A stretch of DNA of 64,000 nucleotides from Promethearchaeota archaeon (GCA_048941285.1 JBHLNS010000002.1:64001-128000); one strand, 5' to 3'. Shown: positions 789 through 57,349, counted from the stretch's first letter. Numbers and translations: made by a program. The notes: generated by a model from the sequence alone, not told the origin.

Positions 789-1259
789 TTATGTTTCTCT
801 CAGAAATTGCTTATAGCAACTACAACATGGAACTCCAAATTGAAATTTTATTTTTTTTAAGTTTTCTTTCTTTAATGTCATCAGTCTTATCAATTCTTTT
901 ATAATAAATTTCTTATCATCATCAAAAAATATGTGCTTTAAATTAAAGAAGTGATTTTGATTACCACATATAGGACAAATCCTATAAAATCTAATAAAAT
1001 TATAAAAAATTTCTCTTTCTTTATCTGTTAATGCTTTAATTTTTAAGTCTGGATTATTTCTAATTAATTCTCTTAAATTATTTAACTCATTTATCATTTC
1101 ATCTCTTAGAAAAGTAGAATTACTATTTACTGATACAATATTATTAGTGTTTTCTTGGTTCACCAAGTCTTGGTTATCGAATTTATCAATATATTCGACT
1201 GCTTCGTTAAAGAATTTCAAGCGAGTATTTCTCTTTTTTTCACTCATATAAAAATACAA
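789..1259 (-). CDS. hypothetical Zn-binding protein
   Basis: CPICG and VPCCSC Cys clusters; real start probably the ATG at 1247. Confidence 0.6.
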   Translation of the reverse strand: MYFYMSEKKRNTRLKFFNEAVEYIDKFDNQDLVNQENTNNIVSVNSNSTFLRDEMINELNNLRELIRNNPDLKIKALTDKEREIFYNFIRFYRICPICGNQNHFFNLKHIFFDDDKKFIIKELIRLMTLKKENLKKIKFQFGVPCCSCYKQFLRET

Positions 1260-1316
1260 TTATAATTTTTGGAACTTTTCAAAAGAATATTTAGATATTC
1301 TTTCTAAAAAATTTTA

Positions 1317-49299: not shown

Positions 49300-51603
49300 T
49301 CAATTCAATATTAAGAGCTTCCTTTTTTTAGGTAACGATACTTTTTCAACACCTAATTCTTTAACATACTCCACAACATCAGTTAAATTTTTAGCAGACT
49401 GGTGGAAAAAGCAAACTTGTTTTGGTTCTAAATTATTTATCATTTCTCTTAATTGATTTTTATCTGCATGGAGATTTATTTTGATGTGAGGTGCAAAAGT
49501 ATTCAGTAAAAAAGCTCGAAACGGCATTTTCCATGTTTCAGAAAACTCGATTTCATCTGCACCTTCAAGCAGTTCTTCACCGGGCGATTCATGAATCGAT
49601 CCTGCTAGATATACAAAATTGTGAGGACTTCGTCCTACAACATTTATTATGTTTCTTATTAGTCCATAAGAAAGATCTGGAGGATGTGAAATAATAATAT
49701 TATTTTTTTTTCGTAAAAAGTTTAAATTTGAATGATCAAACCATCTAAATTTTATACTATTAAAGGGATTTGCTTTATCTTTAATTAATCTTGAAATTGG
49801 TCCATAAATATATTCATATCGATGGTTTATAACTTGGATATTTTTCCGTACCATCATGTCTACATATATATTAGGTCGTTTTTTGAAACCACGCCTTAAT
49901 TGAAGCTTCCTAAAATATCTCCAAAAGATCAACATAAAACTAATTGCTAAACTAGAAGGATCTGCCCCAATTAAAGAATTATCTCCATATTCTGCTTTCT
50001 GTTCAAGAAATAATATTAAACTATGAAATTGATCAGATATATTCCCAAAATCTTCTTGTGCTGCTGTACCATCGATTAATAAATAATCTACTGGCCGTGA
50101 GATTTGTTCCAAAAATCTTTTTGTTCCAGCAAATGGTGTAATATCAATAAAAGTATAGTCTCCTGTATATAAGAATTTAAAATCATTCACTTTTGCTTGC
50201 ATCATCAATGCCCCAGGCATATGACCTGCATGAAAAAAAGAGAGAAAACAATTGGGTTCTTCAAATTCTATTTTTGTGCCATTTTCCACATAGATTACAT
50301 TTTTAATTATATTTCGATATTCTTCTTCCTCAATCTCATTATATTGTTCTTGTTTTAAATAATTTGAATCTCTTAATAGATATAGATCTAAAGTTATACG
50401 TGAAGATAAGACAGGAATATCTGGAAACATTTTAATTAATTCTTTCAACCCAGAAACATGGTCATAATGACTGTGAGAGATAAAAATGGCATCAATCTTT
50501 GGATTCTTGGGAATATTATCATAAATATTTTCATCAGTATCTTCAGTTTTTGTTTCTTTTCTCTCTTTTTCTGCATCCACAATATTATTAGATAAGTTCT
50601 GTAGATACTCTTCAATATATTTAAAATCGCCTTCCAATTCCTTTTCTTCATCTTTTTCTGAAAGTCCACAATCCAACAATATATTTAATCTTCCTAATCC
50701 TAATATGTGACTATTGTGGTTCGGTTTTAATATAATAGGATAAATAGTGACTCGGATATCATTCGAATTGCCATCCTTTTCAAGTAGAGATAGATTAGAA
50801 AAGTAATCAAGATCATATCTCTTCTCAATTTTATCAATTGCAATAGAAATTTCACTTTTACCAACAGGAACACCGGTAATATAAAAGTACCAACCATATT
50901 TTTTTACAAGGTTCTCTAAATTTTCATACATCTCATCTCCTAAAAGAGATTTGATTACAATCAATTTATCTTCCTGATAATAAATGATTTTTCTCATACC
51001 CTTTTTCTCTTCTGTAGGAACTAATTCATTTTTAAAAAATAAGTCATTAAGAACATCCATTATAGGGGTTTGTACTATATCCTCAAATTTAATTAATTTA
51101 AGATAGTGTCTATATTCTTTTGTATGATAAAGTGGACGCATATTTTTTTTTTGTTTTACTATTATTTTCAAATCTTCAAATTGGAATTCTTCTACGCTAA
51201 TTGTTAATTCAAGTTTTCTTGCTTCTTTTTTTTTAATCTTATCTTTTTCAAATACGTTTTGTTCTAATTTGTTTTCAGATATAAAGAAAAACCAACCATA
51301 ATCTCTAACCAACTTAGCACGATTTTTAATTATATCTTTTCCACTTGGAGTAATTACGATAATTATTCTTTCAATTTCTGAGTAGATTATTTTAGAAATT
51401 GAATTTTTAGTTTTATTTGAGATGAGTTTATCTTTAAAAAATAAATGACTAAGAACATTGTCGATTTGTTTTTGAGGAATTTTATTATCGATCATGAATT
51501 TAAGATTAATTTTATAAGACTTAATCTTAAAAGACGCATCCAATTTCTCTTTTTTTTCAATTGGGATAATCCTATCTGAAAATTTAAATTCCTCAGTAAT
51601 CAT
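49300..51603 (-). CDS. beta-CASP/MBL ribonuclease-like protein with duplicated N-terminal domain
   Basis: LLDCG, ISHSHYDH, AGHMPGA, YTGDY, HAD, final H; probable start ATG 51603. Confidence 0.8.
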   Translation of the reverse strand: MITEEFKFSDRIIPIEKKEKLDASFKIKSYKINLKFMIDNKIPQKQIDNVLSHLFFKDKLISNKTKNSISKIIYSEIERIIIVITPSGKDIIKNRAKLVRDYGWFFFISENKLEQNVFEKDKIKKKEARKLELTISVEEFQFEDLKIIVKQKKNMRPLYHTKEYRHYLKLIKFEDIVQTPIMDVLNDLFFKNELVPTEEKKGMRKIIYYQEDKLIVIKSLLGDEMYENLENLVKKYGWYFYITGVPVGKSEISIAIDKIEKRYDLDYFSNLSLLEKDGNSNDIRVTIYPIILKPNHNSHILGLGRLNILLDCGLSEKDEEKELEGDFKYIEEYLQNLSNNIVDAEKERKETKTEDTDENIYDNIPKNPKIDAIFISHSHYDHVSGLKELIKMFPDIPVLSSRITLDLYLLRDSNYLKQEQYNEIEEEEYRNIIKNVIYVENGTKIEFEEPNCFLSFFHAGHMPGALMMQAKVNDFKFLYTGDYTFIDITPFAGTKRFLEQISRPVDYLLIDGTAAQEDFGNISDQFHSLILFLEQKAEYGDNSLIGADPSSLAISFMLIFWRYFRKLQLRRGFKKRPNIYVDMMVRKNIQVINHRYEYIYGPISRLIKDKANPFNSIKFRWFDHSNLNFLRKKNNIIISHPPDLSYGLIRNIINVVGRSPHNFVYLAGSIHESPGEELLEGADEIEFSETWKMPFRAFLLNTFAPHIKINLHADKNQLREMINNLEPKQVCFFHQSAKNLTDVVEYVKELGVEKVSLPKKRKLLILN

Positions 51604-52020
51604 TAAATTAGTGATATATGCCAAATAAATTAACAATTATGATTTTCTTATTACGTCTTTAAGATAATTATTAAAATTTAATAATTTTAAAGGTAAAACT
51701 TCCTTCTTCAAATATACTACTTTATATAATAAAGTAGAGTGAAAATATCCCCATTTACTGATTTAACGTTTTAATTTGAAGTAAATGTGTAATATTTCAC
51801 ATTTCTAACAACATCAAAAACTCTGTATTAGTTTTTATTCTAATAATAATAACTACTATTTTTATAATAATCTTAGTCAGTTCTATAATGAGTTAGTTGG
51901 ACTAAATGCATTTTTTTTATGTTTTTAAAAGGATTAATGATTCAAATTAAAAAAAAGGATAAATAACCTTCAAAATTTTTTAATATATTTTTCTTCAATA
52001 TATCATTTAAATGCTTAAGT

Positions 52021-52431
52021 TTACTTGTATTTATTAAGTTTAACTTTTTTTAGTGCTGTATTTAAGTCTTCAATAGAATAACCTCTATCTTTTAAACCCT
52101 TCATAACAGTACCAAAATTGAGACCTTTAAGAATATCATTTAAATTTTCTTTCGAGATTTCAATTCCTAATTCAAGTGGTTGAGGTTTTAATGTGTAAAT
52201 TATTCTTGTTATCTCTTCAAATCTAGGTAATAAGAATGTTTCTATTCTATAACTAAATTTTGGAGATACCATTGGAGCTACCGATTGTAAATCTATGCAT
52301 TCAGCAAGTGCATTAATTTGCTTTATACTCAATGTTACAATTCCGTATTCTTTTCCTTTTTTTTTAAAATTGTTTTTTATAAAAATCACATTATTTTCAA
52401 AAATAGCATATTCATATTCATTTCCATCCAT
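52021..52431 (-). CDS. hypothetical protein
   Basis: 136-aa ORF with GGGGA SD, co-oriented with mobA. Confidence 0.7.
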   Translation of the reverse strand: MDGNEYEYAIFENNVIFIKNNFKKKGKEYGIVTLSIKQINALAECIDLQSVAPMVSPKFSYRIETFLLPRFEEITRIIYTLKPQPLELGIEISKENLNDILKGLNFGTVMKGLKDRGYSIEDLNTALKKVKLNKYK

Positions 52432-52473
52432 TATTTAATCCCCACTTTCATATTCATAATTTTATTTAGGCTT

Positions 52474-53133
52474 TTATTCAACTAATTTTATTAATTTAAT
52501 AAGATCTATTGGCCCATTGACATTGATTAAGCTTACTAAATTTTTATCTAATTTTTGAATAGAGTTTTCTACAGAGACATAATTTACGTTCCAATTCTTA
52601 TCTATAAAATTAATCAATCCATAATTTTCAGTAATTAAAATTTCTTTCGCTTTTTGAAACCCCTTTTCAACGGGATAAATCGCGAAAAAAGGTTCTAAGA
52701 AACCATTTTTCCATCTAGGAATACAGCAATCAAATCCTATTGATTCTTTAATCATTAGATTAATTACTTCTGGATTAATTAAAGGCATATCACAGGATAA
52801 TAAAAATATTTTTTCAAAACCCAAATTATTGAGTTCTTTAAACCCAGAATAAATTCCTAACATAGGTTTATAGATTTTGGAATGACCAAAAATTTCTCTA
52901 TCATCTACAATGAAATTAACATCTTTAGGAAAATCTATTTGTTTTTTATAATTAAAGATTTGTTCATCAGAATGAGCAACTAAATAGATATCTTGATCAA
53001 ATTTTGATAAAATGTCTAATTGATGTAAAATTAATGGTTTTCCATAAAATTCAATAATTGGTTTTTCAATACCAAAACGAGTACTTTTTCCACCAATTAA
53101 AATGAGAATTGCTAAATCTTTTTGACTATTCAT
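52474..53133 (-). CDS. mobA: molybdenum cofactor guanylyltransferase
   Basis: ILIGGKSTRFGIEK, PMLGI, LSCDMP, EPFFAIY, NVNGP. Confidence 0.85.
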   Translation of the reverse strand: MNSQKDLAILILIGGKSTRFGIEKPIIEFYGKPLILHQLDILSKFDQDIYLVAHSDEQIFNYKKQIDFPKDVNFIVDDREIFGHSKIYKPMLGIYSGFKELNNLGFEKIFLLSCDMPLINPEVINLMIKESIGFDCCIPRWKNGFLEPFFAIYPVEKGFQKAKEILITENYGLINFIDKNWNVNYVSVENSIQKLDKNLVSLINVNGPIDLIKLIKLVE

Positions 53134-53275
53134 TCTTCTATTTTCTGTTTTAATTAATCTGAAGATCTGTTTTTATTTTTCTATGCTTTTATGTGTTTTA
53201 TATAAAAGATGAAAAGAATTTCTAAAAAAAACTATTTAGATTTTTGTACGAAAGCTCTGAATTTTTTATTCACAT

Positions 53276-53413
53276 TTAATATTCCTCGTCGTCTGCGTCC
53301 CAATCGTCGTCGTCATCTTCGTCCCATTCCTCGTCGTCATCTTCGTCCCAATCATCATCATCGTCAACATCCTCATCCCAATCCTCATCTTCATCTTTCT
53401 TTTTTCCAGTCAT
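53276..53413 (-). CDS. 45-aa extremely acidic Trp-repeat peptide (not in ORF track)
   Basis: MTGKKKDEDEDWDEDVDDDDDWDEDDDEEWDEDDDDDWDADDEEY; GGAG SD 8 nt upstream; mixed synonymous GAT/GAC/GAA/GAG codons. Confidence 0.8.
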   Translation of the reverse strand: MTGKKKDEDEDWDEDVDDDDDWDEDDDEEWDEDDDDDWDADDEEY

Positions 53414-54240
53414 TTTATATCTCCATTATTTTTTATTTATTCTACATTAAAATAATCTTATGTTTTCAATTACGATTAAAAACTTATTATATATTTAAAT
53501 GTTTCTAATTTTAATAACAATATTTAAAATAAAAAAGCTTAATTGATATTTCAATATAATAAAACTTATTAATGGGTACTTATATTGCTTTTAACCATTG
53601 ATTTTTATCATATTTAAAATTATGCTACTCATTTTAAATAAAAATAAGGTTTAATCCACGATAAAAATCTTATGGTTTATACCTTTTTTAAAACCTTTAA
53701 TAAATCTGAGAATATTTTTACTATTAGTTAGAAAGCAAAACTCTATTTTTTTTTATATAAAATTCAATTCCTTTTAAAAATAATGGTAAAATTTTTAGCA
53801 GAAATCACTCAATATTGTAAAATAAGTTGAGAAAGAAGAAATTATGTTAAATCAAATTCACATTTATTTCCTTATGATTAAAACTTAAATTATGCCTAGG
53901 ATTAATGGATTATATTTCTAATGAAAAGAGAATTAGTGATAATAAATTTAGTTTTACCAATCATTATTAGATAGAAATATTTTTAAATTAGCTTAATCTT
54001 ATTTAACTTCAAATATAACCTTTTAATTAAATTATATATAATCAAATTTAAACAACATATCTCAAGGATCCGTTAAAACTGTAGATGATATATAATATTA
54101 ACAGTAATATATTAAGAAATCTTAATCCTAATATTAATCTTTTCCGAGATTGTTTAAAAGTCTTTAGCTTTTTTTTAAGTTATTTAAGGTTTATTTTATT
54201 CATTTTTTATCAAAATTACAAACTTATTTAATTAATAATA

Positions 54241-56172
54241 ATGACAACCCAAAATAGAAGTACAAATATTAAAAAAAAAAATTTTGAAAGTAAAGAAAAA
54301 AATACACCAAAATGTTTAGGTCCTGTTCCAGACTTAGAGAACTATGTTAAGAAGGATTGGTGGAAAAGAATATTTAACGCTTATTATTTAAAAACAGATG
54401 GTGATGTTGTCGACGATCAAAAAATCACTCAATTTGAAGCAAAATATTTTACTAAAGTTATGAACTTTCAACAAGATCATCATATTCTTGACCTTTGCTG
54501 TGGTCAAGGAAGACATTCAATAGAATTAGCTAATAAAGGTTTTAAACATATATTTGGACTAGATCGTTCAAGGTTTTTGATTCAAAAAGCTAAATCAGAT
54601 GCTAAAAAAAAAGGTGTGATTTGTAGATTTCGTGAGGGTGATGCAAGAAAACTACCGTATAGTCCTGATTCATTTGATTCTGTTATGATTTTAGGCAATA
54701 GTTTTGGATATTTTGAATCTATAAATGATGATGTTATGGTTCTTAAAGAAGTTTTTCGTGTTTTAAAACCTTGGGGAAATATATTAATTGATATTACAGA
54801 TGGAGAATATATTAAAAAAAACTTTCAGCAACGTTCATGGGAATGGATTGATAAGAATCTTTTCGTGTGTAGGGAAAGATCTTTATCTTTAGACAAACAA
54901 AAATTAATTTCAAGAGAGGTAATAACTCATGTGAATAAAGGAGTATTAGTTGATCAATTTTATTCTGAAAGACTGTACTCTAAAAATGGCATTTCAAAAT
55001 TATTAAAAAAAGCAGGTTTTAGTGATATAACCTTTCATGACACAATCACTCCTGAATCTCAGAGGGATCAAGATTTAGGTATGATGGAAAAAAGAATTAT
55101 TATTAGTGCTAAGGTTAAAAAAGAATGGACATTGGTTAAAAAGAAGGATATAAAAGTCGGAAGAAACATAGTTGTAGTTTTTGGAGACCCTAATAAACCA
55201 GATTTACTTAAACCTTTAAAAAAATTTGATGATGATGATTTCTATACAATAAATCAATTAAAAGCGGCATTAAAGGAATTAAATGAGTATAATTTTACAT
55301 ATATTGATAACCACACTACTCTTCTTCAAGATTTACGAAATTTAAAGGGAAAAACTGATTTTATATTTAATTTATGTGATGAAGGTTATTTAAATGATGC
55401 TAGAAAGGAATTACACATACCTGCATTATTAGAAATTTTAAATATTCCTTTTACTGGATCCGGCCCTCAATGTCTCGCTTTTTGTTATGATAAATCGTTA
55501 GTAAGAGGTATTGCAAAAGAATTAGGCATTCCGGTTCCTGAAGCTATTTATATTAAGCCTGAAGATAAAATTATTGATTTACCTTTATATTTTCCAGCAA
55601 TTGTGAAGCCTAATTTTGGGGATTCAAGCTTTGGGATCACTCAGAATAGTGTAGTCTCCAATGGAGAAGAATTATTAAGTGCAATTTCAGAAATCCGTGA
55701 AAAATTTGGATATGATAAACCAATTTTAATTGAACAATTTCTTACTGGAAAGGATCTAAGCCTTGGAATTATTGGAAATCCACCTGATAATTACTTTATT
55801 CTTCCTATAATTGAAGAAGACTACTCAAATCTACCTCCAGAATTACCAAAAATATGTGGTTATGAAGCAAAATGGTTGCCAGATTCTCCATATTGGAATA
55901 TTAAATCAATTCCAGCAAGTCTTCCGCAAAATATAATTGAAATAATAGAAACTTGTTCTGTTAAACTATTTGAAAGATTAGAGTGCCAAGATTATGCTCG
56001 TTTTGATTGGCGTTTGGATACTAATGGAAATCCAAAGCTTCTAGAAGTTAATCCCAATCCCGGTTGGTGTTGGGATGGTCATCTCGCAAAAATGTGTAAT
56101 TTTGCTGAGTTGCCATATAAAGATATGCTTAAAAAAATATTAGAAGTGGCAGCGAATAGAATTGGATTCTGA
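54241..56172 (+). CDS. class I SAM methyltransferase fused to D-Ala-D-Ala-ligase-like ATP-grasp domain
   Basis: ILDLCCGQGRH, EGDARKLP, NSFGYF; IPFTGS, DK, IVKP..DSSFGI, EQFLTG, ARFDWR, LEVNPNPG. Confidence 0.88.
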   Translation: MTTQNRSTNIKKKNFESKEKNTPKCLGPVPDLENYVKKDWWKRIFNAYYLKTDGDVVDDQKITQFEAKYFTKVMNFQQDHHILDLCCGQGRHSIELANKGFKHIFGLDRSRFLIQKAKSDAKKKGVICRFREGDARKLPYSPDSFDSVMILGNSFGYFESINDDVMVLKEVFRVLKPWGNILIDITDGEYIKKNFQQRSWEWIDKNLFVCRERSLSLDKQKLISREVITHVNKGVLVDQFYSERLYSKNGISKLLKKAGFSDITFHDTITPESQRDQDLGMMEKRIIISAKVKKEWTLVKKKDIKVGRNIVVVFGDPNKPDLLKPLKKFDDDDFYTINQLKAALKELNEYNFTYIDNHTTLLQDLRNLKGKTDFIFNLCDEGYLNDARKELHIPALLEILNIPFTGSGPQCLAFCYDKSLVRGIAKELGIPVPEAIYIKPEDKIIDLPLYFPAIVKPNFGDSSFGITQNSVVSNGEELLSAISEIREKFGYDKPILIEQFLTGKDLSLGIIGNPPDNYFILPIIEEDYSNLPPELPKICGYEAKWLPDSPYWNIKSIPASLPQNIIEIIETCSVKLFERLECQDYARFDWRLDTNGNPKLLEVNPNPGWCWDGHLAKMCNFAELPYKDMLKKILEVAANRIGF

Positions 56173-56239: not shown

Positions 56240-57349
56240 TTATATGAAAAAATCTAACAAGAGTAGTATAAATTCCATAATAAAGACAACGCTAAGCAGA
56301 ATTTCAACATAAAGTAAAAATTTTTCATTAATATTTGTTTGCGAGACATTATAAATGTTTTCTAACGTTTCAAGCCGATGTCTTATACTTTCGCTCCATT
56401 GCTTTAATTGAAATAATTCCGATAAATGAGTATATATTTCAGCTAAAAAGTAATCTCCAATTAGTTTTGACACATTTTCAATATTTTCTAGTAAAAATAA
56501 CAAATCATATCTTAATCGAATTAGCCGTCCAACTTTTCTTTTGAATCGTCTTAATAAACTCCGACTTTTAAAATAAATTTTGCGTATATCTTCTTCTGCT
56601 ATTGCTAATCTTCTATCTAGTAATTTGTCTAGTGTACGTAATTCGAGTAATTGGTAATTAGCAATCTCGACTACATATAAAATATCTTCATAATCATAAT
56701 TAGGATCAATTATTAGCCCTCTATCAAAATCAAATATTATTAGGTCATTTTTCAAATATGAAAAAGGCTTTTTAAGTGTTTTATTAATTTGTTCCTTACT
56801 GAGGTTTAGTTTTGGATTTTCTCCCATAAGTAGAGCTGAAAAGTAACCTTTTTCACTTTCAATCAATTCTTTGGGGTTAGTTAAACTATCAGTAATACAA
56901 TATAACGTATATTTTTCATATTCAGACTCACCAAATATGAATCCTTCTTCTCCTATATAATCTCTTATTTGGTTAAAGACTTTATTCTGATGGAATTTCA
57001 AAAAATTATTTATTTGAAATTCTCCATCAGAAGTCTTAAATTTAATTTTTCTAAGGGTGTGTAATTCATTAAATGAGAAATCTCGAAAAGGTAGTCTGGC
57101 AATTAAAGAGATCACACCATCTGAATATAATTTAACATGTAGAGTTAAATCTTCAACATTTTTTATTTCACAGGATATTTTCTGAGTGACTTCTAATAGT
57201 AAAGGTACGGGAAAGTCTACATAGGAAGGGGTATCTCGAGTTTTAATAATCCTTTTATCTTGAATTGCAGGGATAATTTTCATTACATCTTGTAAATTAA
57301 TGCTACGTCCTACATCAGTCATTCGGAAAAAAATTGCTTCGCCATTCAA
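56240..57349 (-). CDS. hypothetical protein with C-terminal TM (RMD1/DUF155- or CorA-like layout)
   Basis: DVGRSINL, ELRTLDKLLD, NVSKLIGDYFLA, helical C-terminus ending in VEILLSVVFIMEF. Confidence 0.65.
   Translation of the reverse strand: MNGEAIFFRMTDVGRSINLQDVMKIIPAIQDKRIIKTRDTPSYVDFPVPLLLEVTQKISCEIKNVEDLTLHVKLYSDGVISLIARLPFRDFSFNELHTLRKIKFKTSDGEFQINNFLKFHQNKVFNQIRDYIGEEGFIFGESEYEKYTLYCITDSLTNPKELIESEKGYFSALLMGENPKLNLSKEQINKTLKKPFSYLKNDLIIFDFDRGLIIDPNYDYEDILYVVEIANYQLLELRTLDKLLDRRLAIAEEDIRKIYFKSRSLLRRFKRKVGRLIRLRYDLLFLLENIENVSKLIGDYFLAEIYTHLSELFQLKQWSESIRHRLETLENIYNVSQTNINEKFLLYVEILLSVVFIMEFILLLLDFFI

Follow-up and report, generated by a model that had tools for sequence, protein, structure and literature searches.

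A predicted family of acidic, tryptophan-containing microproteins linked to an uncharacterised methyltransferase/ATP-grasp ligase in Asgard archaea

Results

A short acidic reading frame in an Asgard archaeal genome

A stretch of 64,000 nucleotides from Promethearchaeota archaeon (GCA_048941285.1 JBHLNS010000002.1:64001-128000), here called the window, was analyzed with respect to a short open reading frame (ORF) on its minus strand, which would encode a microprotein of 45 amino acids (aa) rich in aspartate, glutamate and tryptophan. The ORF extends from ATG to TAA over 45 codons and its translation is MTGKKKDEDEDWDEDVDDDDDWDEDDDEEWDEDDDDDWDADDEEY. With 23 Asp and 9 Glu, 32 of the 45 residues are acidic and the net charge is about -29; the four Trp residues at positions 12, 22, 30, and 38 are spaced 10, 8, and 8 residues apart. 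The gene is followed on the same strand by a MobA-like gene and faces a divergently oriented gene for a methyltransferase/ATP-grasp fusion protein, here called the ligase (Table 1). A first-pass annotation made from the sequence had described the ORF by its coordinates, strand, length, number of acidic residues, Trp spacing, GGAG motif and TATA-like box, and this description proved right in every detail. The GC-rich island that it had also noticed is real: determined in windows of 100 nucleotides (nt), GC content is 46-48% over the ORF as compared to 12-26% on either flank.

The genome from which the window derives comprises 3.55 Mb with 29.7% GC and is 94% complete. Public records of its close relatives carry Asgard labels of several kinds, and the genome encodes four actin-family genes (best 441 bits), which bears out the earlier assignment to an actin-containing Asgard lineage; five ubiquitin-family matches above the Pfam cut-off were found as well. 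The composition of the ORF is exceptional in this genome. Just four of the 32,180 ORFs of 20-100 aa contain at least 40% Asp and Glu, and only the ORF studied here has three or more acidic-Trp units.

Table 1. Positions of the features at the locus and of related small ORFs; positions refer to the window unless another locus is named
Feature	Position	Strand	Remarks
Coding sequence (CDS), 45-aa acidic-Trp microprotein	53276..53413	minus	MTGKKK basic head, four [D/E]n-W units, C-terminal DDEEY
24-nt (8-codon) tandem array in CDS	53286..53353	minus	2.8 copies, 88% matches (Tandem Repeats Finder)
Shine-Dalgarno-like GGAG	53422..53425	minus	8 nt before ATG
Conserved block TAATCGTAATTGAAA, downstream of TATA box	53464..53478	minus	consensus TCGTA.TTGAAA at >=80% (31 upstream regions aligned)
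Archaeal B recognition element (BRE)/TATA-type promoter AGAAACATTTAAATA	53492..53506	minus	TTTAAATA at 53499..53492; TTTAAATA-type box aligned in 31/31 orthologs
T8 run	53224..53231	minus	44 nt past stop codon
S-adenosylmethionine (SAM)-methyltransferase/ATP-grasp fusion, 643 aa, divergent neighbour	54241..56172	plus	Pfam Methyltransf_31/25/11, Dala_Dala_lig_C
MobA-like nucleoside triphosphate (NTP) transferase, 219 aa, downstream	52474..53133	minus	99.8 bits vs MobA cut-off 164
136-aa protein, no known family, follows MobA-like gene	52021..52431	minus	follows MobA at roughly half of g1 loci
Intergenic region, 827 nt, between divergent genes	53414..54240		12-24% GC, no convincing ORF
778-aa metallo-beta-lactamase/beta-CASP/RMMBL protein	49300..51636	minus	aCPSF1-like RNase architecture
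369-aa protein, no Pfam family	56240..57349	minus	C-terminal hydrophobic helix; convergent to ligase gene
Second-type acidic-Trp ORF	L011 576..716	minus	
Second-type acidic-Trp ORF	L013 2944..3144	plus	
Second-type acidic-Trp ORF	L253 1381..1539	plus	

Conservation of the reading frame

Orthologous loci were gathered via the downstream MobA-like gene, which gave 41 loci in 40 genomes of the genus; a paralog of about 50% identity was set aside. An intact acidic ORF of 33-55 aa was present in 31 of these 41 syntenic loci, on the same strand as the MobA-like gene and 107-410 nt upstream of it. The other 10 loci carry no intact acidic ORF, and in six of them a cysteine-desulfurase-like gene abuts MobA instead. 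Beyond the genus, conserved small ORFs of the acidic-Trp kind were found as well, in at least five genera altogether; the relatives whose absence would have spoken against the first-pass annotation thus exist. In one of the 31 loci (L022, at about 1240..1290), an A10 run separates the Lys-rich head from the acidic part and the two are in different frames, owing to an assembly error, a true frameshift or a later GTG start.

The acidic frame is free of stop codons in 31 of 31 orthologs; the other five frames are open in 5, 10, 20, 23, and 23 of them. Over 21 alignment columns occupied mostly by Asp or Glu, nucleotide diversity amounted to 0.071, 0.040, and 0.552 at the first, second, and third codon position, respectively. 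Exchange between Asp and Glu was by far the commonest replacement in the alignment of the 31 orthologs, two Trp columns were retained (in 28/31 and 30/30 sequences), and one close pair of orthologs showed 11 synonymous as compared to 0 non-synonymous codon differences. The bias of diversity toward third positions, the Asp/Glu swaps, the kept Trp residues and the pair with synonymous differences only therefore argue for selection on the translated product. The first-pass annotation had drawn the same conclusion from synonymous codon variation, and indeed variation in the acidic codons falls on the third position, not on the first two. Judged by these patterns, the ORF is very probably a real gene, coding for a disordered polyanionic microprotein.

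A different view would be that the region is no protein gene at all, and that a GA-rich DNA repeat or an RNA element is open by accident. The coding region is indeed a tandem DNA repeat and the family is missing from protein databases, but frame conservation, a start codon provided with a Shine-Dalgarno motif, third-position variation and the conservation of Trp indicate a protein; furthermore, Rfam yielded 0 matches at E <= 1 over positions 51500-55000. We regard this view as extremely improbable.

Codon choice was examined for Asp. GAC accounts for 11 of the 23 Asp codons in the ORF (0.48), for a fraction of 0.23 in the microprotein family and for 0.13 in the long ORFs of the genome; for comparison, the fraction is 0.38 in the EF-1alpha gene and 0.11 and 0.16 in two thermosome genes. 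The high share of GAC is thus a weak hint of high expression.

Expression signals

A motif of the GGAG/GAGG type is located 3-13 nt before the start codon in 27 of the 31 orthologs, which begin with ATG (23), TTG (5) or GTG (3). All 31 share a promoter block consisting of GAAAcATTTAAATAT and, about 12 nt on, TTTTaTCGTAaTTGAAA, situated approximately 80-110 nt before the start; in other genera, a GAAAACATTTAAATA motif also precedes the small ORF. The conserved block TAATCGTAATTGAAA downstream of the TATA box is probably the region of transcription start and would begin a 5' untranslated region of about 55 nt. On the other side of the gene, the T8 run is probably an archaeal oligo-T terminator. 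A run of at least five T occurs 20-92 nt past the stop codon in 31/31 orthologs, a number that refers to AT-rich DNA and has no background control. Given the T8 terminator, the small gene would be monocistronic. A scan with models of sigma-70 promoters and hairpin terminators, which are not applicable to an archaeon, returned sites no commoner than in shuffled sequences. From these signals and the composition we infer a microprotein that is separately transcribed, translated, intrinsically disordered and polyanionic.

Build and occurrence of the microprotein family

The family collected here comprises 49 predicted members from five genera, with lengths of 33-62 aa (median 47), an acidic fraction of 0.38-0.76 (median 0.61) and 1-5 Trp residues per member. 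Their translations share one build, namely a short Lys-rich head, then repeats of 5-7 Asp/Glu each followed by a Trp, or Tyr/Phe in relatives, and usually an aromatic end. The first half of the consensus has a variable start, then G-x-K-K, optionally an aromatic residue, 4-6 acidic residues and W-D-[DE]-D; the second half consists of variable acidic/aromatic repeats followed by W-[DE]-D-[YF]. Members end in Y (27), D (12), F (7) or another residue (3). The copy number of the 24-nt unit differs between species, with 5.8 copies in the ortholog at L007; the array is the unit by which the gene expands and contracts, in frame, between species.

Neither Pfam nor NCBIfam gave a match for the window's peptide. 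When all 49 members were searched against Pfam at E <= 10, scattered low-complexity matches were the only result (FAM176 in 5/49, best E 1.1), and PDB at E <= 10 gave 0 matches for the family profile or the peptide. A search for homologs in a protein database returned 21 word-sharing candidates, none of which scored. Exact look-up in a collection of 15 billion predicted proteins missed seven of eight family members; the ESM Atlas contains the exact sequence from the window, the nearest clusters being unnamed with a score <0.9. In the open-access full text searched, no description was found of such a microprotein or of the function of the methyltransferase/ATP-grasp fusion. A single-protein search of relatives recovered 3 of 40 genomes although most carry the gene. 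Since low-complexity queries fail in this manner, synteny and DNA patterns were used instead. A DNA pattern for two acidic-Trp units matched in 77 of the 154 genomes of the order, its reversed control in 0/154; this two-W pattern misses 6 of the 31 known orthologs and matches a few larger proteins too. The family is fast-evolving, unannotated and so far restricted to one taxonomic family of Asgard archaea.

Link to the methyltransferase/ATP-grasp ligase

The divergent neighbour combines a class-I SAM methyltransferase domain (approximately aa 40-260) with an ATP-grasp domain resembling D-Ala-D-Ala ligase (approximately aa 300-640). Its PDB matches are VanA/Ddl (1e-19), and mean column identity among orthologs is 66% (n = 44). 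A true D-alanine--D-alanine ligase was considered and rejected, as the best NCBIfam Ddl model reached 124 bits vs a cut-off of 243; the protein is Ddl-like only. Public sources name it solely 'methyltransferase domain-containing protein' or 'D-alanine-D-alanine ligase'. Relatives are numerous, with at least 5065 at E <= 1e-30 among 8000 scored, and orthologs are present in 88 of the 154 genomes of the order.

The surroundings of the ligase gene were scanned by composition, not by pattern, and small acidic ORFs were counted if they lay no more than 1 kb upstream of the start of the ligase gene. Such an ORF was found at 43 of 76 evaluable ortholog loci. It is divergent from the ligase in genera g1 (23/32 loci) and g22 (10/23), and in tandem with it, on the same strand at a distance of 92-544 nt, in g15 (6/6), g16 (3/3) and g21 (1/2); four further genera of the taxonomic family had it at 0/5 loci, as had three other families of the order (0/5). 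The other flank changes, too: a MobA-like gene follows the small ORF in g1 and g22 only, and elsewhere genes for a major facilitator superfamily (MFS) transporter, a PAN-like protein and others take its place. Because the ligase persists across the change of orientation and of the other flank, the pairing must have outlived at least one rearrangement. In one genome with two copies of the ORF, one adjoins the ligase and one adjoins MobA.

Two-W pattern and ligase were also compared across 135 genomes of the taxonomic family: 61 contain both, 18 the ligase only, 12 the pattern only, and 44 neither. The ligase is present in all 31 g1 genomes with the syntenic ORF. Chance adjacency is negligible, because small ORFs with at least 40% Asp and Glu number just four in 3.55 Mb. 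The ORF is physically and phyletically linked to the ligase.

Other neighbours

At 15 of 49 evaluable loci (g1 6/12, g22 6/20, g16 3/3; for example L233, 4448..5665, plus strand), the ligase gene is followed, 17-154 nt on and in the same orientation, by a PAN-like AAA gene coding for the OB domain of a proteasomal ATPase and an AAA domain. This order suggests an operon that would tie the enzyme to protein unfolding or degradation. The window has no PAN-like gene, the two of its genome being on other contigs. The small ORF was found upstream at six of the PAN-positive loci and was missing there at six others; PAN-like gene and small ORF therefore do not track each other. The ATPase link, itself no more than a hint, belongs to the ligase and not to the peptide.

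Farther downstream on the minus strand, the 778-aa protein has an N-terminal extension of about 300 aa in which a module of about 150 aa appears to occur twice, and its gene is kept downstream of the MobA-like/136-aa pair in several relatives. The 369-aa protein has a counterpart of 372 aa at the same place in g22 (L200) and a 41%-identical relative near another acidic ORF in a ligase-free genome (L065).

Acidic-Trp reading frames at other loci

A second type of acidic-Trp small ORF (MVPKDDDEDW... to NDGYFEEE(Y)) was observed a few kb off in the same neighbourhood in some congeners (Table 1), and other genera have acidic ORFs of an 'NDGDW' type at unlinked loci. The family therefore has several paralogous branches, not all of them linked to the ligase. 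Of the three further small ORFs in the window's genome that reach 40% acidic residues, two were noted (C64:56243-56416, minus; C68:36525-36773, plus), one coding for a Tyr/Trp-acidic protein of 57 aa and the other for an 82-aa protein with a zinc-ribbon-like CxxC...CxxC and a poly-Asp/Glu tail. Similar zinc ribbons with an acidic-Trp tail ending in Y were seen at L047, from another family, and in an Anaerolineae record (L138); they recall LysW-type carriers.

A three-Trp pattern was scanned in one genome per species over 185,579 species and matched at least 119 stretches in many bacterial and archaeal phyla. When 80 of these were translated, 33 were found in ORFs of at most 110 aa, and the others were mostly acidic tails of larger proteins. 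Among the matches listed, some small ORFs show the same build of Lys-rich head, acidic-Trp repeats and aromatic end, for example in records labelled Bathyarchaeia, Thermoproteota, Acidianus and Chloroflexi. Tandem repeats coding for (EECQEW)n were matched in Prochlorococcus records (L114, L121, L122, L135, L148); they appear to have no relation to the Asgard family, and a repeat at the DNA level is possible in place of a gene.

Discussion

A possible role with the ligase

As our best, though tentative, proposal, in which we place clearly less than even confidence, the microprotein may serve the methyltransferase/ATP-grasp ligase as partner, substrate, scaffold or tag. The peptide would act with the fusion enzyme as a peptide substrate, a scaffold or a conjugatable tag; the ligase would convert a peptide carboxylate, either at the C-terminus or in a side chain, into an acyl phosphate and couple it to an amine, and the methyltransferase domain would modify the ligation product. 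Docking would involve the Lys head and the two near-invariant Trp residues. Here we infer both the contact with the ligase and any chemistry. The first-pass annotation had considered a repetitive precursor for modification, and the recurrent methyltransferase/ATP-grasp neighbour lends this idea circumstantial support, which is one of gene context only. Prediction of a complex of ligase, ATP, and peptide gave a score of 0.00 in two runs made without controls, which carries no weight for or against the proposal, the peptide having a predicted local distance difference test (pLDDT) value <50.

A number of observations weigh against this proposal. No acidic ORF is present within 1 kb at 33 of 76 ligase loci, and ligase orthologs of 56-60% identity in three other families have neither an ORF nearby (0/5) nor a match to the two-W pattern; the enzyme therefore does not need the peptide. 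The acidic-W pattern occurs without the ligase in 12 genomes, some matches lying in larger proteins, and a Ddl-like gene was near only 1 of the 119 acidic-W loci listed from other phyla; acidic-Trp miniproteins extend beyond Asgard archaea and the ligase link does not. The small ORF retains its own promoter and T-run even when it stands in tandem with the ligase, so co-transcription of the two is not indicated. The ATP-grasp domain aligns with VanA/Ddl over its whole central and C-terminal parts with no large gap, nothing in the ligase sequence suggests an active site opened for a macromolecule, and the C-terminal residue of the peptide varies across the 49 members. Furthermore, the co-occurrence is inflated by relatedness, and a single deletion can remove both adjacent genes. 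On the MobA gene tree, absence of the ligase corresponds to three changes with two well-supported contrasts; the ORF agrees in both, and the sign test on these contrasts is underpowered (p 0.5).

Comparison with known systems

The microprotein resembles pairs of a small acidic protein and a carboxylate-amine ligase, such as Pup-PafA, LysW-LysX, and RimK-S6, without being a member of any of them. In the Pup-PafA-Mpa system of Actinobacteria, a small disordered acidic protein is encoded beside a carboxylate-amine ligase, and Pup is conjugated via its C-terminal GGQ or GGE. Here, the small acidic ORF adjoins the ligase at 43/76 loci, and a PAN-like gene follows the ligase at 15/49, the window not among them, without tracking the small ORF. 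However, no GG[QE] C-terminus was found among the 49 members, the fold of the ligase is ATP-grasp (Ddl-like) and not PafA/Dop, and conjugation is hypothetical here. LysW, an amino-group carrier protein, is a zinc ribbon with four Cys and a fixed acidic-Trp C-terminal motif, and its partners LysX and ArgX are ATP-grasp ligases. Both systems have a small acidic protein, and in the LysW system an ATP-grasp ligase acts on the acidic-Trp tail, coupling a carboxylate to an amino compound. In contrast, the window's peptide has no Cys and the C-terminus is variable in its family; the neighbour is of the Ddl type and not of the RimK type and is fused to a methyltransferase, and no genes of the lysine or arginine pathway were found nearby at the loci examined.

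Tyrosinated alpha-tubulin ends in EEY, as does the window's peptide, and in the RimK-S6 and TTL/TTLL-tubulin systems ATP-grasp-type ligases also extend or decorate acidic tails, RimK by adding Glu to the C-terminus of S6 (PMC10375531); in both systems, however, the tail belongs to a large folded protein. No CAP-Gly domain was found in the window's genome, a search of this genome for TTL gave a single borderline match elsewhere than the ORF locus, and a check for PCI was negative or non-specific. Graspetides, a type of RiPP, have a core whose Thr, Ser or Lys positions become cross-linked to Asp or Glu by a dedicated ATP-grasp ligase with a neighbouring gene. In the window's peptide, Lys (in the head) and Asp/Glu are present, the repeats contain no Ser or Thr, and an ATP-grasp gene is adjacent but is of the Ddl type and occurs elsewhere without the peptide.

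DSS1/Sem1 is another small disordered protein with Trp among Asp and Glu. The disordered ubiquitin-binding motif of Dss1 is described as at least two aromatic residues, best Trp, 2-3 residues apart among acidic ones, and binding strengthens with more Trp and Asp or other acidic residues (PMC9381478). Pairs of this type (e.g. WDEDW, WEDY) are present in 29 of the 49 family members and absent from the window's peptide. The family has no detectable homology to DSS1 (PF05160 0/49; PDB none), although composition filters may hide weak similarity. Docking by a Trp with acidic neighbours in disordered sequence is documented for ligands of the kinesin light chain (KLC), for the acidic region of WASP/WAVE and for the WalK tail. 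These are single motifs in large multi-element proteins, whereas the microprotein is as a whole an array of 1-5 units.

A wider scheme would be either an Asgard-specific modification system, in which a polyanionic tag or scaffold conjugated or decorated by the ligase is read by a PAN-type unfoldase in a convergent, Pup-like manner, or an archaeal counterpart of DSS1/Sem1 bridging ubiquitin-like proteins and proteasome-associated complexes. We consider such a scheme unlikely.

Alternative functions

Nearly as likely as a partnership with the ligase, and hence itself only a possibility, is a free-standing polyanionic decoy or chaperone for basic surfaces, that is, a mimic of nucleic acid, a chaperone of histones or ribosomal proteins, or a DSS1/Sem1-like multivalent binder of ubiquitin-like proteins and proteasome-associated complexes; the ligase would then be a neighbour through inherited synteny or because regulation is shared. 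This function agrees with the composition and with the predicted disorder, pLDDT <50 indicating low fold confidence only, and the strong consensus promoter together with the choice of Asp codons suggests an abundant product of a gene that would be monocistronic. Similar stand-alone acidic-W ORFs exist in unrelated archaea and bacteria with no ligase nearby, 29/49 members have Dss1-type aromatic spacing, and the genome encodes the five ubiquitin-family matches mentioned above. However, the Trp residues of the window's peptide are 7-9 residues apart, without the spacing of 2-3, and Pfam DSS1_SEM1 gave 0/49 at E up to 10 and PDB none; moreover, the persistence of the ORF next to the ligase despite a change of orientation would be left unexplained. 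The extreme charge density might alternatively serve to buffer cations or polyamines, with about 32 carboxylates of an abundant peptide sequestering Ca2+, Mg2+, metal ions or polyamines, and in one genus (L233) an arginine decarboxylase gene is located in the same neighbourhood. Near-invariant Trp residues and a Lys head are not needed for ion binding, though, and no transporter or metal-related gene was consistently linked in the loci examined, which makes such a buffer quite unlikely.

Control of a downstream gene was considered as well. Translation of a Trp/Asp/Glu-rich upstream ORF could govern read-through of the T-run into the MobA-like or ligase gene, and the layout of small ORF, T-run 20-92 nt on and same-strand gene 92-544 nt downstream would suit a leader peptide. 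This is very unlikely, since the downstream gene differs among genera, the peptide is long for a leader with residue classes conserved over its whole length, and, in the window, a TATA-like box stands between the T-run and the MobA-like start. Slimmer still are the chances of a multivalent W-acidic ligand of the cytoskeleton, put forward in the first-pass annotation with reference to the 'A' motif of Arp2/3 activators and to tetratricopeptide repeat (TPR) ligands of the kinesin light chain type. The W-acidic core recognized by KLC consists of a hydrophobic L or M, an acidic residue, W, and an acidic residue. In the window's peptide, the Trp contexts are EDWDE, DDWDE, EEWDE, and DDWDA, and L or M is not found two residues before any W. 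Nor is the comparison with Arp2/3 activators supported: the peptide consists of a K-rich head and acidic repeats and has no Pfam match, and it lacks the WH2 (V) and central (C) elements that precede the acidic, Trp-containing stretch in WASP/WAVE proteins. ARPC4 (PF05856) and ARPC2 (PF04045) were unmatched in the 94%-complete genome, in searches without a positive control, as control genomes gave no match either; furthermore, no actin, profilin or gelsolin gene was linked at any locus examined. What speaks for a cytoskeletal ligand are the actin-family genes of the genome, a match of one of the 49 members to the Pfam Myo1 central-acidic model (E 0.32, not significant) and a published prokaryotic W-acidic docking tail, that of the kinase WalK (PMC9087282).

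Significance

The locus thus appears to represent a new, unannotated family of microproteins, extreme in composition and reproducibly linked to an uncharacterised ligase. Small ORFs of the acidic-Trp kind escape annotation, as seen from the seven of eight members that are missing from a collection of 15 billion proteins. Disordered segments with acidic and aromatic residues are common docking devices in eukaryotes, DSS1, W-acidic motifs and tubulin tails being examples. Here, a conserved, probably abundant and compositionally extreme microprotein is predicted in the closest prokaryotic relatives of eukaryotes, the Asgard archaea. A functional link to the ligase would point to a new chemistry of peptide modification or tagging and would provide a testable substrate for a widespread, uncharacterised methyltransferase/ATP-grasp enzyme. 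Even if the peptide acts alone, it would be a simple, synthesisable probe for partners with basic surfaces in organisms that are hard to grow.

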